A stretch of 64,000 bases of DNA from GCF_055900595.2 NZ_CM148325.1, one strand, 5' to 3'. Positions 44,827 through 54,220 are shown, counted from the stretch's first letter. The notes: generated by a model from the sequence alone, not told the origin. A program made the numbers and translations.

Positions 44827-45762
44827 ATGGCACTGCCAATTCTGTTAGATTGCGATCCAGGTCATGACGACGCTATCGCAATAGTTCTCGCCCTCGCCTC
44901 ACCAGAGCTTGATGTCAAAGCAATTACGTCTTCCGCCGGAAACCAGACACCAGAAAAAACCTTACGCAATGTTCTGCGTATGCTGACCTTGCTTAATCGC
45001 ACCGATATTCCGGTAGCAGGCGGCGCGGTAAAACCATTAATGCGTGATTTGATTATCGCGGACAATGTGCACGGCGAAAGCGGTCTCGACGGCCCTGCAT
45101 TACCGGAACCGACGTTCGCACCGCAAAACTGTACGGCGGTGGAGTTGATGGCGAAAACGCTGCGTGAAAGTGCGGAACCTGTCACGATTGTTTCTACCGG
45201 ACCGCAAACTAACGTTGCCTTGCTGCTCAATAGCCACCCGGAACTGCATAGCAAAATCGCCCGAATCGTGATTATGGGCGGCGCAATGGGGATTGGTAAC
45301 TGGACGCCAGCCGCCGAGTTTAATATTTATGTTGACCCGGAAGCGGCAGAAATTGTCTTCCAGTCAGGGATCCCGGTGGTGATGGCCGGTCTGGATGTTA
45401 CTCACAAAGCGCAAATTTACGTTGAGGACACCGAGCGTTTCCGCGCGATTGGCAACCCTGTTTCAACCATTGTTGCCGAACTGCTGGATTTCTTCCTCGA
45501 ATATCATAAAGACGAAAAATGGGGCTTTGTTGGCGCACCGCTGCATGACCCATGCACCATCGCCTGGCTGTTGAAACCAGAGTTGTTTACCACTGTTGAG
45601 CGCTGGGTTGGCGTGGAAACACAAGGGAAATATACCCAGGGTATGACGGTTGTTGATTATTATTATCTGACCGGCAATAAACCGAATGCTACTGTAATGG
45701 TCGATGTTGATCGTCAGGGCTTTGTTGATTTACTGGCTGATCGTCTGAAATTTTACGCTTAA
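44827..45762 (+). CDS. rihA: Pyrimidine-specific ribonucleoside hydrolase RihA
   Basis: ORF 44794-45762; start placed at [19 protein letters not shown] (the DxDxxxDD nucleoside hydrolase motif), 311 aa. Confidence 0.93.
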
Positions 45763-45845: not shown

Positions 45846-47516
45846 ATGGATAATGCAGAACTCGCCATTGGTATCGATCTCGGTACTACCAATAGTTTAA
45901 TTGCCGTCTGGAAAGACGGTGCCGCGCAATTAATTCCAAATAAGTTCGGTGAATATTTAACACCATCCATAATTAGCATGGATGAAAATAATCATATTTT
46001 AGTCGGAAAACCCGCTGTATCACGGCGCACTTCGCATCCGGATAAAACGGCAGCGTTATTTAAACGTGCAATGGGCAGTAATACCAACTGGCGGTTAGGC
46101 AGCGACACATTTAACGCGCCTGAACTGTCCTCTTTGGTATTACGCTCATTAAAAGAAGATGCCGAAGAATTTCTGCAACGTCCGATTAAAGATGTGGTGA
46201 TCTCCGTTCCGGCTTATTTCAGCGATGAACAACGCAAGCATACCCGTTTAGCAGCGGAGTTAGCCGGGTTAAATGCGGTACGCTTAATTAATGAACCCAC
46301 AGCAGCTGCGATGGCATATGGCCTGCATACGCAACAAAATACCCGCTCGCTGGTTTTTGATCTCGGTGGCGGCACGTTTGACGTCACGGTGCTCGAATAC
46401 GCCACGCCGGTGATTGAAGTTCACGCCTCCGCTGGCGACAACTTTCTTGGCGGCGAAGATTTTACTCATATGCTGGTGGATGAAGTTTTAAAACGCGCCG
46501 CAGTGGCTAAAAACATGCTCAACGAAAGTGAGCTGGCAGCCCTGTACACCAGCGTGGAAGCGGCAAAATGCAGCAATCAATTACCGCTGCAAATTAGCTG
46601 GCAGTATCAGGAAGAAACGCGTGAGTGCGAATTTTACGAGAACGAACTGGAAGATTTGTGGTTGCCGCTGCTCAATCGCTTGCGAGTGCCGATTGAACAG
46701 GCGTTGCGCGATGCACGTCTGAAGCCAAGTCAAATCGACAGTCTGGTGCTGGTTGGCGGCGCATCACAAATGCCGCTGGTGCAGCGAATCGCCGTGCGTC
46801 TGTTTGGCAAATTACCGTATCAAAGTTACGACCCGAGTACTATTGTCGCGCTGGGCGCAGCGATCCAGGCCGCCTGCCGCTTACGCAGCGAAGACATTGA
46901 AGAAGTGATCCTCACCGATATTTGCCCCTACTCCTTAGGTGTTGAAGTTAACCGCCAGGGCGTTTCCGGCATTTTCTCACCGATTATTGAACGAAACACC
47001 ACTGTACCGGTGTCGCGTGTAGAAACTTACTCGACCATGCACCCGGAACAGGATTCAATTACGGTTAACGTCTATCAGGGAGAAAACCACAAAGTTAAAA
47101 ATAACATTCTGGTAGAATCCTTCGATGTGCCGTTGAAGAAAACCGGGGCTTATCAGTCGATTGATATTCGCTTTAGTTATGATATCAACGGGTTGCTTGA
47201 AGTTGACGTGCTTCTGGAAGACGGCAGCGTTAAGTCCAGAGTCATTAACCACAGTCCTGTAACATTGAGCGCACAGCAGATTGAAGAGAGTCGGACGCGG
47301 TTATCCGCATTGAAAATTTATCCGCGCGATATGCTCATCAACCGCACCTTTAAGGCCAAACTGGAAGAGTTGTGGGCGCGGGCGCTGGGTGACGAGCGAG
47401 AAGAGATCGGCCGGGTGATCACCGATTTTGATGCGGCGTTGCAGTCAAACGATATGGCCCGCGTCGATGAAGTTCGGCGACGGGCGAGCGATTATTTGGC
47501 TATTGAGATCCCTTAA
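45846..47516 (+). CDS. hscC: Hsp70-family chaperone HscC (Hsc62)
   Basis: 556-aa ORF with the Hsp70 N-terminal ATPase signature (IGIDLGTTNS, DLGGGTFD), shorter than DnaK. Confidence 0.93.
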   Translation: MDNAELAIGIDLGTTNSLIAVWKDGAAQLIPNKFGEYLTPSIISMDENNHILVGKPAVSRRTSHPDKTAALFKRAMGSNTNWRLGSDTFNAPELSSLVLRSLKEDAEEFLQRPIKDVVISVPAYFSDEQRKHTRLAAELAGLNAVRLINEPTAAAMAYGLHTQQNTRSLVFDLGGGTFDVTVLEYATPVIEVHASAGDNFLGGEDFTHMLVDEVLKRAAVAKNMLNESELAALYTSVEAAKCSNQLPLQISWQYQEETRECEFYENELEDLWLPLLNRLRVPIEQALRDARLKPSQIDSLVLVGGASQMPLVQRIAVRLFGKLPYQSYDPSTIVALGAAIQAACRLRSEDIEEVILTDICPYSLGVEVNRQGVSGIFSPIIERNTTVPVSRVETYSTMHPEQDSITVNVYQGENHKVKNNILVESFDVPLKKTGAYQSIDIRFSYDINGLLEVDVLLEDGSVKSRVINHSPVTLSAQQIEESRTRLSALKIYPRDMLINRTFKAKLEELWARALGDEREEIGRVITDFDAALQSNDMARVDEVRRRASDYLAIEIP

Positions 47517-47575
47517 ACACGGCTGCCGGATGCGGCATAAACGCTGCATTCGGCATCGGCGCAAAAAACACATCC

Positions 47576-49027
47576 TCAGCTAAACAACATCGCGATTTTT
47601 CCGAGAGCATAACCTATCACCAGCACCGTTAAGCTGATTTTGATAATGCTGGTAATGCTCTGTGGTTTTTCATCCTCATCATTTTTTTCTTCGTGGTTTT
47701 CAGGTGTTGGCTCATCGACATCTTCATCCTCCGGCTCGAGTTTCACTTTCGTCAACAGCATCCGCGTGATAATGGCCTCTAATGGATGAGCATCTCCACC
47801 TTCCAGCCTTGTATTAAGACGGGCCAGCATCTCTTGTTTCGGGAACGCTTCCAGCACAACCTGTTCCGCTACCCGATACAAATCCAGTAACGGTGAATCT
47901 TGTTCTGTCTCGCTACCGACTCTCGATTTCCACCATGCCCATGTTTTGCGCTTGAAGAATAACGACTCAATAAACGATTGACCTAACGGCGATAATTTTC
48001 CGCTATGTAAAATTTCCGCCCATAACAGCCTCGTCCGGGCGCTCTCACCAGGAACATATTTCAGCGGCTTACCTTGCGCATCAACCATGCTTCGCGCTTC
48101 GATAACCATCACTAACAGCGCGAAGTAATCCGGGCAATGTTGCGCACTCCACTGCAGTAATAAATTATCGGCTTGTGTAGATGGATAACTTTCCCAGTAA
48201 CCACAGAGATCGGCAAGCATGCTTTCACCCTCGCCGCAGTATAACCGTTGCGCACACTGGTAATATCGGGCATCTTCACTTTCTGGTTCTTCCGTTTGCC
48301 ACTGTTGCGCTACAGAAATGAGTTCCGCCATACCTGTTTGCACCGAGCTATACCAGCGCAACAATTTGCGATGCAACTTCGCATCATCGGGAATGAACCA
48401 CGGACCTTCCATCGCCAAAAACGCAGTGACATAGTCAGGGTGATAACGGCAGCAGCGTTCCAATGCGAAGTAATACTCAACAGTCTGGTTCTGCAACGCG
48501 ACGGGATATTCCAGAAGGCTTAGAAAATCGAAACAATCCCCGGCCTGAATGGCCTCAAGAAAAGCCTCCCGTTCTTCCTCGTCCATGCCTTCACTTTCAT
48601 TAAATGAATGCCAGTTCAAACGCTCTGCCAGCAAAGAAGCACAATTTAATGAAAGATATCGCGCTTCTGTAGCGATTGCACACAGCGGCCAGCGTAATTG
48701 ATCGACATCCTCCATGTTCCAGGTATTTAATTGCTGAATAAATTTCTGCCAGGCGGAGGGCTGAAAACGATCGCTTTCCGAAGCCAGTAAGGTTCTGAAC
48801 GCTTTCAGTGCTTCGTGCTCTTCTGCAAGATTTTTCTCGTCATCAGCATTTTTTTCGTCCGGATTGACAGCCAGTCGCAGCGCCTCTTCATAGGCCTGGC
48901 GTAATGCTTTAAACCCCTGCGGATCGGTTTCGGGATGACACAACGGTAAGCGAGCAAGATAAGCCTGGCGGATACTGTCTATTTGCGTCGTGCTTTCAAT
49001 TTCGAGGATTTGCCAACATGTTTTCAT
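47576..49027 (-). CDS. djlC: J-domain-like co-chaperone DjlC (YbeV), C-terminally membrane-anchored
   Basis: 483-aa ORF with an N-terminal J-like region (…[11 protein letters not shown]…) and a C-terminal hydrophobic helix ([17 protein letters not shown]); paralogous to the ORF at 50396-51823. Confidence 0.85.
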
Positions 49028-49731
49028 AGGTCGCTCACATCCTTAAGCGTTACCGGGCATTCAGGCTGGACAATTAATGGCTGCCAGGGAAGCGTGGCAT
49101 AGAAACGATCGCTTCCCGCTGCCAACTCCTCGAACATCCGACTCCCGGCGTTATCGTATTTGTACAGGGTTAGCGCCTCGCGTAGCGAAGCGTTGTCTTC
49201 ACACTGGGAAGATTGCCAGTAGAGACGTCCTAATGAATAGGCGGCAAAATAGTGAATCCAGCTGTGATAATAATGGTGAGCTCGTACATAAACGCGCGAT
49301 TGCAGCCATAAACTCTCTTCTTCCGTCAGCCAATTGTTGAGCACACCGACCCGCGATAAAAACCCCATCCGCACATAATCCCAGGCTTTGATTCCCCCTT
49401 CCCCACAACACATAGCGGTTTGGGCAACGAATTGGGTATAAATCAACCCTCTCTCCGAGCCGCCAGCAATTAATGTTTTCCACTCTTCAGGGGAAGAGCG
49501 ATGCCATGTCAGATATAAGCCAGCTAAATCATTGGCATGACCATCATCGGTCATCTGATAAATAGTCTGAATTAAATCATCACGATTATTTATTCCCCAG
49601 GATGATGAGAGATCGAATTCTTTTATCCCAGTATACATTTTTGGCGAGTCATGCGCTGGCTTGCAACCCTGATTAAGTATTTCCATGGGTGCAGAAAGCG
49701 CAAAAAGAAGATATTGTTCTTCCTTATTCAT
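49024..49731 (-). CDS. ybeU: DUF1266-type protein YbeU
   Basis: 235-aa ORF whose stop overlaps the djlC start (ATGA at 49024-49027); paralogous to the ORF at 51820-52563. The DUF1266 label is from memory. Confidence 0.8.
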
Positions 49732-49831
49732 TTGTTAATAATCCCTTAAGTGCATTAACTGACTACTTTTTTATTATCGATGAGTATAAACTTGACGTTT
49801 TCAAAATAAAAGAAAATAGAAGTATTCATGC

Positions 49832-50386
49832 ATGAATAAAAAATTAATATATATATTCGCAATATTTATAGTTGCGGCAATTACCTGTATTAGCCAACCC
49901 AACAAAACGACCCTGCGCGATAAAGCTATGGCGAATTATGTCTTTGATTATTTAAGCTCACCGGGCAGTCTTCCGTTTACCACGGCAGCAACAGAGCTTT
50001 CCGCCATTCATGGTCACTCAACGTCGCAATATAGACTTGGCGAATTTTATCTTCATGGTAGCGATGGTAAGCCTCTGGATTATACAAAGGCGAGATACTG
50101 GTATGAGCAATCAGCGGAACAGGAAAATCCACGCGCGCAAAGTCAACTGGGATGGATCTACCTGAAAGGTTTGGGAGTCAATCCCGATACCCGTAAAGCA
50201 ATTCTCTGGCATAAGGAAGCAGCTGAACAAGGGCATGTTCATGCACAATACACGTTGGGTTTGATCTACAGAAACGGCACGGGCATTAGCACCAACAATT
50301 ATGAAGCTCGCAAATGGTTAGAACTGGCGGCAGAGCAACATTATAAAAATGCGGAAAGATTACTTGCAGAGCTTCCCGCACATTAA
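49832..50386 (+). CDS. ybeT: Sel1-repeat (TPR-like) exported protein YbeT
   Basis: 184-aa ORF with an N-terminal hydrophobic segment and repeated Sel1 units (A-x-S/Q-Q-x-xLG-x-x-Y-x-x-G-x-G-V). Confidence 0.8.
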
Positions 50387-50395
50387 CGTCGACTT

Positions 50396-51823
50396 TCACC
50401 CGAACAGATGAAGTATTTTCCCTATCAAACCGGCAAAGATAAAAATATAGAAAATAATTTTAATGATGCCCAGACAGCCCGGCCCACCATCGTCAACGGG
50501 CATTGGCTGCGGTTGCGGCTCCGGCTTGACGGTTTGTTGCCCGGCAAAATTCGCCGACTGAATTAATAATCGTCGAATTATTAATGCGTCCAGAGGACAA
50601 CGATCTTCTGCATCAAGGCGGGCGACGATCGGCATCAATGATTCTTCTGTCGGTTGGCTGGTCTTCACTAATTGTTTAGCAACTAAATATAATGGCCATA
50701 AGGGATGTTCTGTATCACGCGTGAGTGAGATTCGCGGCTTACGCCCTTTGTGCAAAACCATCTCAACCAGAGAACGCCCCAGCGCAGAGAGTTTCTCATC
50801 GCTGAGTATTTCGTATAATTGAAAGCGCGTACGCGCACTGTCGCCAGGAACATAAAGTAACGGTTTCCCCTGATCGTTAACCAGTTCACGTGCTTCAATC
50901 ATCATCACGACTAACGGGTAATAATCGACCCGATGCTGACGGCACCATTGCAACATTAATACATCTGCCTGGGTCGAGGGAGACTCGCGCCAGAAGTCAC
51001 AAAGTTCTGCCAGCAAGCTTTCGCCTTCTCCACAATAGACGCGTTGCGCGTATTCATAATAACGCGCATCTTCATTATCAGGTTCAGTTTCCCGCCATGA
51101 CCGGGCGTAGTCCAGGAGTTCGGGTATTCCCAGGCGGACTGCGCTATACCAGCACAGTAAATTTCTGTGCAGTTTTACATCATCGGGGATAATTACCGCA
51201 CGATGTTGCGATAAATATAATGTCAGCCATTCTGGATGCGATGACCAAATCCGCGCGAACATTTGGTAAAAATCAATGGTTTCATTTTGCACGGCAACAG
51301 GCAGATGCAGAATGGTCTGGAAGTTAAAAACATTCCCCTTCGCAATGGCATATAAAAAGGATTCCAGTTCTTCTTCGTCTATTTCCCCGGTGTTTTCCTC
51401 CTGTCGCCACCGCAATCTTTCTGCTAATAAAGCCACGCACTCGAAGGATAAATGGGCAGTGTTCATGGCTATTGTGCACAGTGACCAGCGTAATTCATCA
51501 ATATCTTCCATCGAGCAATAATTTAATTGCTGAATGAATCGCTGCCAGGCAGAGGGCAGAAAACGTTCGCTATCAGAGGCGAGTAACGCACGAAAGGCGA
51601 ACAGTATTTCATGTTCTGCAACTTCATGTTCTTCTGGTTGCCAAACAGATTTAGCAGGCGACTGCGCAATCCGTAGCGCGTCCTCATACGCCTGACGAAG
51701 TTGTTTAAAACCCTGCGGATCGGTTTCTGGATGAAAGGACGGTAACAGCGCCAGATAAGCGCGGCGGATAATATCGACTTCAGTCGTTTCCTCTATTTCG
51801 AGAATCTTCCAGCAATTTTTCAT
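50396..51823 (-). CDS. djlB: J-domain-like co-chaperone DjlB (YbeS), C-terminally membrane-anchored
   Basis: 475-aa ORF, N-terminus [39 protein letters not shown] closely parallels DjlC; C-terminal hydrophobic tail. Confidence 0.85.
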
Positions 51824-52563
51824 AGGTCGCTCATATCCTTAAGCGTTTCCGGGCATGCAGAATAGTAAGCCAATGGTTGCCAGGACAAGGTAGGGTAATA
51901 CGCATCATCACTGGCAAATAATTGATAAAACATATCATTGCCGGAATCGTCGTATTCTTTACGCGCTAAAAATTCACGTAATAACTGAAGATTATCATCT
52001 TCGGGAGACTGCCAATATTGCCGACCAAAGGTATAACCGGCAAAGTATTGCTGCCAGTTACTATAATAACGTAGCGCCCGTAGATGAATGCGCGACTGGA
52101 TCCATAGACTTTCTTCTTCGCTCAACCAGTTATTAAGTACGCCCATTCGGCTTAAAAAACCCATCCGGACATAATCCCAGGCTTTGATTCCCCCTTCGCC
52201 ACAGCATTCGGCGGTGCTGGCGACAAATTGCGCATAAGCCTGACCTTGCTCATTTAGTTCAGCAAGATAATCACGCCATTCACATGGAGAATAACGAAAC
52301 CAGCGGTGATAAAGCCCTGCCAACCGAGCGGCATGACCGTTATCGATCATTCGGTGAATTGTACGCAGCAGGTCATCACGGTCATCAATTCCCCATGAGG
52401 AAGAAAGGTCAAAAAAGCATGTACCTAAATACATTTTGGGGGATGAATGCGAAGGTAAACAGCATTCATTGCGTATTTCCATCGGAGTGGAAAGTGCAAA
52501 CAATATTTTTTGCGACTCCATGTCCATATAATTTATCCTTAAACATTCATTTAATGAATACAA
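51820..52563 (-). CDS. ybeR: DUF1266-type protein YbeR
   Basis: ORF of 247 codons (true start may be an internal Met, e.g. [11 protein letters not shown]); its stop overlaps the djlB start; paralog of YbeU. Confidence 0.8.
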
Positions 52564-52684
52564 ACTACATTGCGAGACTCAGTTATTTATACTTTTCTGA
52601 CGCAACATAATACGCATAAAATAAGGCTTACGCAAAAATGGAATACATAAAAATATAATATGTTTTATCTACAACCATAAGGAA

Positions 52685-53668
52685 ATGATAATGATTTTTA
52701 CGTCAAGTTGCTGCGATAATTTATCAATAGATGAGATTATCGAACGTGCTGAAAAAGGCGATTGCGAGGCTCAATATATTGTTGGGTTTTATTATAATCG
52801 CGATAGCGCAATTGACTCTCCGGACGACGAAAAGGCCTTTTACTGGCTGAAGCTGGCCGCTGAGCAAGGTCATTGTGAAGCACAATATTCCTTAGGGCAA
52901 AAGTATACCGAGGATAAAAGCCGTCATAAAGATAATGGGCAAGCCATCTTTTGGCTGAAAAAAGCTGCCCTACAAGGCCATACTTTCGCTTCCAACGCCC
53001 TTGGCTGGATACTGGATCGTGGAGAAGACCCCAACTATAAAGAAGCGGTTGCCTGGTATCAGATAGCCGCGGAGAGCGGAATGTCTTATGCGCAAAATAA
53101 TCTTGGGTGGATGTACAGAAATGGCAACGGAGTCACACAAGATTATGCGCTGGCATTTTTCTGGTACAAACAAGCTGCATTGCAAGGCCATAGTTACGCA
53201 CAAGACAATCTGGCCGATCTTTATGAAGACGGTAAAGGTGTTGCCCAAAACAAAGCTCTTGCCGCATTCTGGTATTTGAAAAGCGCACAGCAAGGTAATC
53301 GGCACGCTCAATTTCAAATTGCGTGGGATTATAACGCTGGCGAAGGGGTTGACCAGGACTATAAGCAAGCAATGTACTGGTATCTGAAGGCTGCCGCTCA
53401 GGAAAGCGTCGGCGCTTACGTTAACATCGGCTATATGTATAAACACGGTCAAGGCGTTGAGAAGGATTATCAGGCCGCCTTTGAATGGTTTACGAAAGCC
53501 GCTGAATGCGATAATGCCACTGCCTGGTATAACCTTGCCATTATGTATCATTACGGAGAAGGAAGACCTGTCGATCTCCGACAGGCTCTCGATCTGTATC
53601 GTAAAGTTCAGTCATCCGGTACCAGGGATGTCAGTCAAAAAATCCGTGAGATTGAAGATTTACTGTAG
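52685..53668 (+). CDS. ybeQ: Sel1-repeat protein YbeQ
   Basis: 327-codon ORF with about eight consecutive Sel1-type repeats (…A-x-x-W-Y-x-K-A-A-x-Q-G…). Confidence 0.85.
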   Translation: MIMIFTSSCCDNLSIDEIIERAEKGDCEAQYIVGFYYNRDSAIDSPDDEKAFYWLKLAAEQGHCEAQYSLGQKYTEDKSRHKDNGQAIFWLKKAALQGHTFASNALGWILDRGEDPNYKEAVAWYQIAAESGMSYAQNNLGWMYRNGNGVTQDYALAFFWYKQAALQGHSYAQDNLADLYEDGKGVAQNKALAAFWYLKSAQQGNRHAQFQIAWDYNAGEGVDQDYKQAMYWYLKAAAQESVGAYVNIGYMYKHGQGVEKDYQAAFEWFTKAAECDNATAWYNLAIMYHYGEGRPVDLRQALDLYRKVQSSGTRDVSQKIREIEDLL

Positions 53669-53737: not shown

Positions 53738-54220
53738 TTAAGGCTCGAACGGGCGTCTCTGGAACTGATCATGACCACATTTCGGGCATAGCGTCAGCAC
53801 TTCCGGTGTGTAGATTGGGAGATGGAAGTGACATTTCTCGCAGACCAGATTCCCCAGACCTACGACTTCCCCGCTGTGATAAACCCCGTGATGATTGAGG
53901 TCCTGGAAAACTTCGCGCCATTCAAGCTGCGTTTTATCGGTGATGTCTGCCAGTTCCTGCCACAAGCTTTCTTTAATCACCCGCATAAAGACGCTGTCAG
54001 ACTCTTCTTTCAGGCTCTCTTCATAGCTCATGGCGAACTCTTCCAGGTCACGTCTGACAGCTCGCGTCAGCTCATCGACCTCGGTTCGCGTTAACTCCCC
54101 TGTTTTTATTACGCGCTCGCGCGCCTGTTCCACCAGTGCGTCGATATCACGTTCGCCATTACGCAGGCGTTCGCTCAGTGACGCGACCAGTTCACGGTAA
54201 TATTGAGCAACCTTGTTCAT
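53738..54220 (-). CDS. ybeL: Conserved protein YbeL (zinc-ribbon-containing, DUF1451 by recollection)
   Basis: 160-aa ORF with a C-terminal CxxC...CxxC motif (CEKCHFHL...CPKCGHDQF). Confidence 0.85.
   Translation of the reverse strand: MNKVAQYYRELVASLSERLRNGERDIDALVEQARERVIKTGELTRTEVDELTRAVRRDLEEFAMSYEESLKEESDSVFMRVIKESLWQELADITDKTQLEWREVFQDLNHHGVYHSGEVVGLGNLVCEKCHFHLPIYTPEVLTLCPKCGHDQFQRRPFEP

Follow-up and report, generated by a model that had tools for sequence, protein, structure and literature searches.

Which proteins does HscC, the only one of the three Hsp70s of Escherichia coli without an assigned cellular job, work with? The window analysed here, a 64,000-nucleotide stretch of NZ_CM148325.1 (GCF_055900595.2), carries seven intact open reading frames (ORFs) between rihA and ybeL. 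These constitute the already annotated Escherichia cluster hscC-djlC-ybeU-ybeT-djlB-ybeR-ybeQ (Table 1), a dispensable accessory locus in which the paralogy of the J-proteins DjlB and DjlC is already known. An original prediction made from the sequence alone had listed the same seven genes, whose coordinates and strands are borne out by the ORFs, and had read the segment behind hscC as two copies of a three-gene unit encoding a J-protein, a DUF1266 protein and a Sel1-repeat protein. By comparing this locus with its relatives in other bacteria, we obtained the lead that makes up its main value, namely that the DUF1266 gene appears to belong to the HscC system.

The evidence for this comes from a HMMER search with DjlC and a scan of one genome per species, which gave 80 loci, about 70 of them gammaproteobacterial, and in which the neighbouring genes were identified by local phmmer searches and all-against-all clustering of the flanking ORFs. 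The gammaproteobacterial loci come from many Pseudomonas species and from Gilliamella, Erwinia persicina, Rahnella, Budvicia, Leminorella, Limnobaculum, Marinobacter and Bowmanella. The order DUF1266→J←HscC, with hscC convergent with the J gene, is found in the window and in about 70 other loci of this group. Wherever the contig was long enough the same three genes were present, leaving as exceptions Leminorella, with no HscC match within the fetched flank, and two short contigs. J, DUF1266 and HscC were the only families common to 12-14 genus labels (two of these labels being unidentified metagenomic loci), and the core triad occurs in at least 12 named gammaproteobacterial genera. When a fourth conserved gene was sought by clustering of the flanking ORFs, none was found, the next clusters being shadow ORFs within the triad genes or generic ABC ATPases. 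The stop codon of the DUF1266 gene overlaps the start codon of the J gene by 4 nt (ATGA) in 71 of the 71 gammaproteobacterial loci examined, which supports the earlier suggestion that the two form a translationally coupled, obligate pair. The phylogenetic distribution thus retains the DUF1266 and J genes of the predicted unit, joined by hscC, and drops its Sel1 gene, which accompanies the module only in Escherichia, Salmonella and Citrobacter.

Most of the relatives outside these three genera encode a long form of DjlC of about 890 residues (J-domain, PF27158 and DUF805), in which the J-domain and the next ~400 residues, covering the solenoid described below, are 27-37% identical to DjlC. These long-form loci share with the window the triad, the ATGA coupling and the HPE motif of the J-domain; they differ in about 400 extra helical residues, in a C-terminal multi-pass DUF805 membrane domain instead of a single tail anchor, in their single copy and in having no Sel1 genes. 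A third order, DUF1266→HscC→J on one strand, was found in GCA_019825845.1 (L095:226-4629), where the J-protein is soluble and 656 residues long and the DUF1266 protein is more divergent. Since the triad is kept in this arrangement with a soluble J-protein, its linkage is independent of both gene order and membrane anchor. In the Firmicutes (Lachnospiraceae, Eubacterium and Clostridium), an HscC-type Hsp70 adjoins a J-protein of 1000-1300 residues that contains PF27158 and long TPR arrays and has HPE, NPE or SPE as its J motif; the ORFs of these loci gave no DUF1266 match to the family hidden Markov model, fused or separate, and no predicted membrane helix.

Gene order around the triad is conserved within Pseudomonas groups, within Gilliamella and among Escherichia, Salmonella and Citrobacter, and this synteny indicates mostly vertical inheritance of a cellular function. 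Erwinia persicina carries the triad on non-mobilizable plasmids of 130-165 kb. On one of them, pEP2 (130 kb), the 887-residue long-form J-protein (L092:7678-10341) is a ‘hypothetical protein’ in RefSeq and thus goes unrecognised as a J-protein there, and the triad lies near ParD-like and methionyl-aminopeptidase genes. We did not accept plasmid carriage in E. coli from the ‘plasmid’ matches of ybeU; several of these records are 0.7-4.9 Mb long and look like mislabelled chromosome, and the others are 113-280 kb.

Within the window, pairwise comparison confirms the two paralogous units that had been claimed. Identity is 51% between DjlC and DjlB (453 residues, E=1e-157) and 60% between YbeU and YbeR (235 residues, no gap, E=1e-106), and the two bicistrons, ybeU-djlC and ybeR-djlB, are about 71% identical in DNA. 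The 4-nt ATGA overlap noted earlier can be read directly from the sequence of both bicistrons and stands in an identical context (GAGCGACCTATGAAAA). The island of Salmonella and Citrobacter is likewise found at the rihA-ybeL site; there the two DUF1266-J bicistrons lie 11 bp apart without ybeT between them, and one YbeQ orthologue is found beyond the distal pair. Of the duplicated J/DUF1266/Sel1 unit, what stands is thus the DUF1266-J pair, and what does not is the Sel1 gene. In neighbour-joining trees the hscC-proximal pairs (YbeU/DjlC type) cluster across Escherichia, Salmonella and Citrobacter, as do the distal DUF1266 proteins (YbeR type), with the placement of DjlB in the J tree being ambiguous. 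With this grouping by position, seen for both pairs in the DUF1266 tree and for the proximal pair in the J tree, the trees overall indicate that the DUF1266-J bicistron was duplicated before Escherichia, Salmonella and Citrobacter split, and that both copies were retained.

The Salmonella and Citrobacter islands hold further genes. A 412-residue protein, for which we found no Pfam match, is encoded between hscC and rihA (L089:13297-14535 and L091:19590-20828, both on the minus strand), and a protein of 314-316 residues with a signal-peptide-like N-terminus adjoins ybeQ (L090:5077-6021 and L091:11393-12343, both on the plus strand). One Salmonella (L091:10001-11377, plus strand) has a third tail-anchored J-protein of 458 residues; it shares about 30% identity with DjlB and DjlC and is an orphan, its gene not being preceded by one for DUF1266.

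The properties of the individual proteins bear on what such a triad may do. Against the NCBIfam models for DnaK and HscA, the Hsp70 of the window gives E values of 1e-113 to 1e-115 and 379-387 bits, far below the equivalog cut-offs of 648-822; these scores set it apart from DnaK and HscA, and its orthology to E. coli hscC places it in the HscC subfamily. Both DjlC and DjlB contain HPETDPQGF; H31, P32 and E33 are invariant in the J-protein alignment, and HPE occurs in 73 of 75 gammaproteobacterial J-proteins. This motif of DjlB and DjlC has been described previously (PMC10410713, PMC13254874). The HscC of the window (45846-47516) contains the motif LAAELAGL, whose Glu aligns to the Gln of ‘DAGQIAGL’ in the M. 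tuberculosis DnaK structure, and this residue is Glu in 66 of 71 HscC sequences from Gammaproteobacteria and in 8 of 9 from Firmicutes. We take this position to be that of Arg167 of E. coli DnaK, which pairs with the Asp of the J-domain HPD motif. Together, the Glu of HscC and the HPE motif suggest a rewired J-Hsp70 contact.

Each J-protein had been predicted to end in a hydrophobic tail anchor, and both do have a C-terminal hydrophobic helix, with 19-residue Kyte-Doolittle maxima of 1.99 in DjlC and 2.39 in DjlB (residues 450-468). For DjlC the AlphaFold model, with a mean predicted local distance difference test (pLDDT) score of 83, adds further support, as it consists of the J-domain, a long helical solenoid, an acidic linker (433-456) and a terminal helix (459-482). 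In K-12, DjlC is a tail-anchored inner-membrane protein whose membrane insertion has been reported, and it stimulates the ATPase of HscC, with DjlB assumed to act alike (PMC8215388). The solenoid is putatively TPR-like; sequence similarity of DjlC to the TPR families in Pfam was not significant, and a sequence search of solved structures with DjlC matched only J-domains.

YbeU matches Pfam PF06889 (DUF1266) with E=2.7e-44 over model positions 2-175 of 175, and YbeR is assigned to the family through its 60% identity to YbeU. The AlphaFold model of YbeU is compact and all-alpha (pLDDT 91.6), and a sequence search of DUF1266 against solved structures gave no match. W45, G64, A66, G110, G113, W117, D118, R121, R127, E139 and R150 are invariant in the DUF1266 alignment. 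The extreme C-terminus is also conserved, as …KPxSLxExDWS or, in enterobacteria, CPxTLKDxSDL; such a tail is the kind of terminal peptide that is bound by TPR grooves or by the substrate-binding domains of Hsp70s. Distant members of the family occur in Vibrio, Shewanella, Clostridium and Paenibacillus. In the literature searched, DUF1266 appears in one paper only, as a differentially expressed gene, and is not named as part of the HscC system. Many E. coli database entries of ybeU and djlC are truncated or fused, for example YbeU at 193 residues, DjlC at 340-374 residues and a 627-residue ‘Hsc56 co-chaperone’ that joins YbeU to DjlC. These entries suggest either frequent frameshifts and pseudogenes or genes mis-called across the ATGA junction.

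The likeliest explanation, to which we give an even chance, is that HscC and its J-protein make up a specialised Hsp70 machine and that the J-protein presents the DUF1266 protein to HscC as a dedicated client or as an adaptor. In such a machine the HPE J-domain would trigger the ATPase of HscC, and the TPR-like solenoid of the J-protein would serve as a protein-binding platform that holds the DUF1266 partner. Translational coupling would ensure that the DUF1266 protein is made in fixed proportion with the J-protein, and it would then be handed to HscC, either as the dedicated client or as an adaptor for a further client. In enterobacteria the reaction would take place on the cytoplasmic side of the inner membrane, where the tail anchor holds it; the DUF805 domain would be the tether in most other Gammaproteobacteria, and at least one lineage appears to be untethered. 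Where the bicistron is duplicated, one HscC may serve two J/DUF1266 pairs of presumably different specificity, which would amount to a division of labour. A fuller version makes the DUF1266 protein the third subunit of a conserved, dedicated-partner HscC machine that is usually membrane-docked and widespread in Gammaproteobacteria, with the solenoid holding the DUF1266 protein, possibly by its C-terminal tail, and HscC remodelling it; this version we hold tentatively, putting its chances somewhat short of even.

The closest precedent for a machine of this kind is found in iron-sulfur cluster assembly, where HscB presents IscU to HscA. The two systems would be alike in having a specialised Hsp70 and co-encoded genes, and in an exclusive J-protein of class C with one particular partner bound by its non-J domain; neither needs GrpE according to the literature (PMC8215388). 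They differ in that the NCBIfam HscA models score HscC far below their cut-offs, the DUF1266 protein is unrelated to IscU, the J-protein of HscC combines a TPR-like solenoid with, in most cases, a membrane anchor and does not have the C-domain of HscB, and no iron-sulfur genes are linked to the cluster. Eukaryotic co-chaperones that join TPR and J-domains (DNAJC3/P58IPK, DNAJC7/TPR2) and TPR receptors for Hsp70 such as Sti1/Hop, Tom70 and Sec72 offer what we consider a resemblance in kind, and homology is not claimed; compared with them, the J-proteins of the HscC system have the reverse domain order with the J-domain N-terminal, HPE instead of HPD, and a tail or DUF805 anchor. The locus of the window is orthologous to the K-12 genes for HscC (Hsc62/YbeW), DjlC (Hsc56/YbeV/HscD) and DjlB (YbeS), and the gene order, the orientations, the HPE J-domains and the tail anchors all agree, so that no structural difference separates the two. 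The K-12 literature searched treats HscC and the J-proteins without discussing the DUF1266 genes, and reviews from 2021 and 2026 cite only the biochemistry of 2002, in agreement with the earlier statement that the physiological role of the whole module is not established. If the DUF1266 protein is indeed the partner, HscC would be the second bacterial Hsp70, after HscA-HscB-IscU, that is built around one co-encoded partner, and this would explain why 20 years of work on HscC and the J-proteins only showed no function.

Several observations weigh against such a machine. That the DUF1266 protein binds the J-protein and HscC is something we infer from genomic linkage, that is, from the co-occurrence of the triad and the ATGA overlap in every locus examined. 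The DUF1266 protein has no structural neighbour of known function, so it is genomic context that gives rise to its putative role as client or adaptor. The Firmicute HscC-J modules that have no DUF1266 mean that HscC can work without it, and the soluble J-protein of GCA_019825845.1 means that the membrane anchor is not universal. Within E. coli, some part of the cluster is present in 4,448 of 5,426 complete genomes, including 3,665 with at least 80% of the rihA-ybeL interval, which we count as complete (~68%), leaving about 14% with a partial cluster and about 18% with none. Proteins of the HscC system are below detection in exponential growth (PMC8215388). The published phenotypes, which comprise Cd2+ sensitivity of an hscC deletion and of a djlB djlC deletion together with an ultraviolet phenotype, are mild and unexplained (PMC8215388). 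Given the ~18% absence, the ~14% of partial clusters and the undetectable protein, any housekeeping role must be conditional.

The incomplete clusters of E. coli arise in different ways. In a recurrent partial form hscC-djlC-ybeU-ybeT is kept and only remnants of djlB and ybeQ are left, and in one variant an IS1-associated deletion joins the remnants of ybeU and ybeR. In one genome without the island only 44 bp separate rihA from ybeL; we read such an empty state as a loss, given that the island of Salmonella and Citrobacter sits at this very position. In strain F8111-1SC3 (L003:2532-3482) the site holds a DUF6985 protein and two small hypothetical proteins instead, none of which matched a PHROG family, and the rihA-ybeL site may be a recurrent insertion point. 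As for regulation, ybeT and ybeU-djlC belong to the H-NS regulon and are induced on SlyA overexpression, ybeT being raised 4.1-fold (PMC5797941), and in an hns mutant of enteroaggregative E. coli at 25 °C one of the most de-repressed genes encodes a DUF1266 protein (PMC7582179). Our own scan of the cluster for promoters and terminators gave promoter-like sites below chance expectation and terminator-like sites within one standard deviation of chance.

Aside from the role of client or adaptor, the DUF1266 protein might be a regulatory cofactor of the HscC cycle, resembling an exchange or release factor or acting as an inhibitor that holds the J-protein in check pending a signal, with unrelated inner-membrane proteins such as metal exporters as the clients. 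The linkage of DUF1266 to HscC and J is strict but silent on its role, and in the GCA_019825845.1 locus the DUF1266 gene lies directly upstream of hscC and not of the J gene. The protein is also all-helical, like BAG-type exchange factors, and membrane-protein clients tied to Cd2+ detoxification have been proposed in the review literature, which on the other hand describes HscC as needing no exchange factor (PMC8215388). We consider a cofactor of this kind unlikely, as the Firmicute HscC systems do without DUF1266, and the universal coupling to the J gene fits a stoichiometric J-DUF1266 complex better than a catalytic cofactor of HscC.

A distinctly less probable explanation is that the cluster is a silenced conflict or anti-phage system, in which HscC, once triggered, remodels the membrane-anchored J-protein (by tail anchor or DUF805) or the DUF1266 protein, leading to membrane damage or a growth halt, and in which the duplicated pairs and the Sel1 proteins would give diversified sensing. 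The patchy presence of the island in E. coli with one alternative cargo at its site would suit this, as would the low GC content of the cluster (46.6%, compared with 50.8% for the whole window), the place in the H-NS regulon with its strong de-repression in an hns mutant, the plasmid-borne module of Erwinia persicina and the variable accessory genes of Salmonella, which include the orphan third J and the 412- and 314-residue proteins of unknown function. Overproduction of HscC reportedly inhibits growth and sigma-70 activity. The database searches argue otherwise: PADLOC-DB gave no match for HscC, DjlC, DjlB, YbeU or YbeR and only marginal repeat matches for YbeT and YbeQ, there is no PHROG family for DUF1266 or the J-proteins, and no relatives were found in 2.9 million viral contigs, with the matches in phage collections being only unannotated fragments of 1.4-2.6 kb. 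In other genera the module lies among ordinary genes of metabolism and housekeeping rather than defence genes, its flanks stay syntenic in many species of one genus, unlike those of mobile defence islands, the sole plasmid carriage is that on the non-mobilizable plasmids of Erwinia persicina, no recognisable effector enzyme domain is encoded in the cluster, and a ybeT knockout behaves as the wild type does under infection by phage Arnold. We give hardly any credence to a cluster with no joint function at all, a decaying, horizontally acquired remnant whose genes are together by history only. Frequent loss and partial deletion in E. coli, the IS1 insertion, the many truncated database fragments of ybeU and djlC and the very low reported expression are what such a remnant would look like, but all seven ORFs of the window are intact, the triad keeps intact frames and a 4-nt coupling that does not vary over at least 12 named genera and three architectures, both pairs have persisted from a time before Escherichia and Salmonella diverged, and biochemical cooperation of HscC and DjlC has been published.

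The Sel1 genes that were set aside above are correctly named, in that Pfam finds three Sel1 repeats (PF08238) in YbeT and eight in YbeQ, and the N-terminal hydrophobic segment that each protein was thought to have is present in one of them. YbeT has a hydrophobic N-terminus at residues 5-23 (Kyte-Doolittle score 2.14). The N-terminus of YbeQ is not hydrophobic, its best 19-residue window scoring 1.09 (MIMIFTSSCCDNLSIDEII), and the YbeQ orthologues of Salmonella and Citrobacter begin with the polar MNHSITSHPCDNLS. YbeT is accordingly predicted to face the periplasm and YbeQ to be cytoplasmic, and with these predicted locations the two are not equivalent partners. Alignment of YbeT with YbeQ gives many alternative registers at 31-38% identity, so that on sequence their similarity is at the level of the repeat family and not that of a collinear alignment of paralogues. 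Orthologues of YbeQ were found in Salmonella and Citrobacter (phmmer E values of 1e-107 to 1e-115), and by phmmer and all-against-all clustering the YbeQ-type Sel1 family had no match in the module loci of other genera, being confined to Escherichia, Salmonella and Citrobacter. The gene ybeT, which lies between the units in Escherichia, is absent from this place in the Salmonella and Citrobacter loci examined; it may have been gained in Escherichia or lost in the other two, as both histories fit the data. YbeQ and YbeT are thus, by their distribution in the loci compared, genus-restricted additions and not core parts. We considered YbeQ as a possible substitute for the ~400 residues that are missing from the enterobacterial J-proteins and rejected it, as it has no similarity to any ORF in the long-form loci. 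A lead from transposon-directed insertion-site sequencing (TraDIS) that ybeT affects phage infection was likewise rejected, given the behaviour of the single ybeT knockout with phage Arnold.

Table 1. The HscC island of the window, with its border genes and the features of the encoded proteins
Feature	Position	Strand	Description
rihA	44827-45762	+	Core gene, left border of the variable island; from RefSeq annotation of the orthologous region
hscC	45846-47516	+	Specialised Hsp70, 556 aa; RefSeq orthologue is ‘molecular chaperone HscC’
djlC	47576-49027	-	J-domain co-chaperone, 483 aa
DjlC, J domain and solenoid			HPE J domain, aa 1-~55; TPR-like helical solenoid, aa ~70-430, Pfam PF27158 ‘DjlB_C_2nd’
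DjlC, linker and anchor			Acidic disordered linker, aa 433-456, followed by tail-anchor helix, aa 459-482
DjlC, C-terminal tail-anchor transmembrane helix (aa 459-482)	47582-47653	-	Predicted from hydropathy and AlphaFold model
ybeU	49024-49731	-	DUF1266 protein, 235 aa, upstream partner of djlC
ybeU/djlC ATGA stop/start overlap	49024-49027	-	Read from sequence
ybeT	49832-50386	+	Small Sel1-repeat protein, 184 aa, divergent from ybeU; predicted N-terminal membrane or signal helix, aa 5-23
djlB	50396-51823	-	Paralogous J-domain co-chaperone, 475 aa, HPE motif; tail-anchor helix, aa ~449-474
ybeR	51820-52527	-	Paralogous DUF1266 protein, 235 aa from ATG
ybeR/djlB ATGA overlap	51820-51823	-	Read from sequence
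ybeQ	52685-53668	+	Sel1-repeat protein, 327 aa, divergent from ybeR; RefSeq start is 52691; predicted cytoplasmic
ybeL	53738-54220	-	Core gene, right border of the variable island

The cluster of the window is 90-97% identical in nucleotides to the seven-gene cluster of E. coli, K-12 included, and its genes have the same names in RefSeq. Judged by its overall identity of about 94.5%, the window is from an Escherichia lineage somewhat diverged from K-12. Upstream of the ATG at 52527 the ybeR frame continues for 12 codons, up to a TTG at 52563; the ATG start fits both RefSeq and the length of YbeU.

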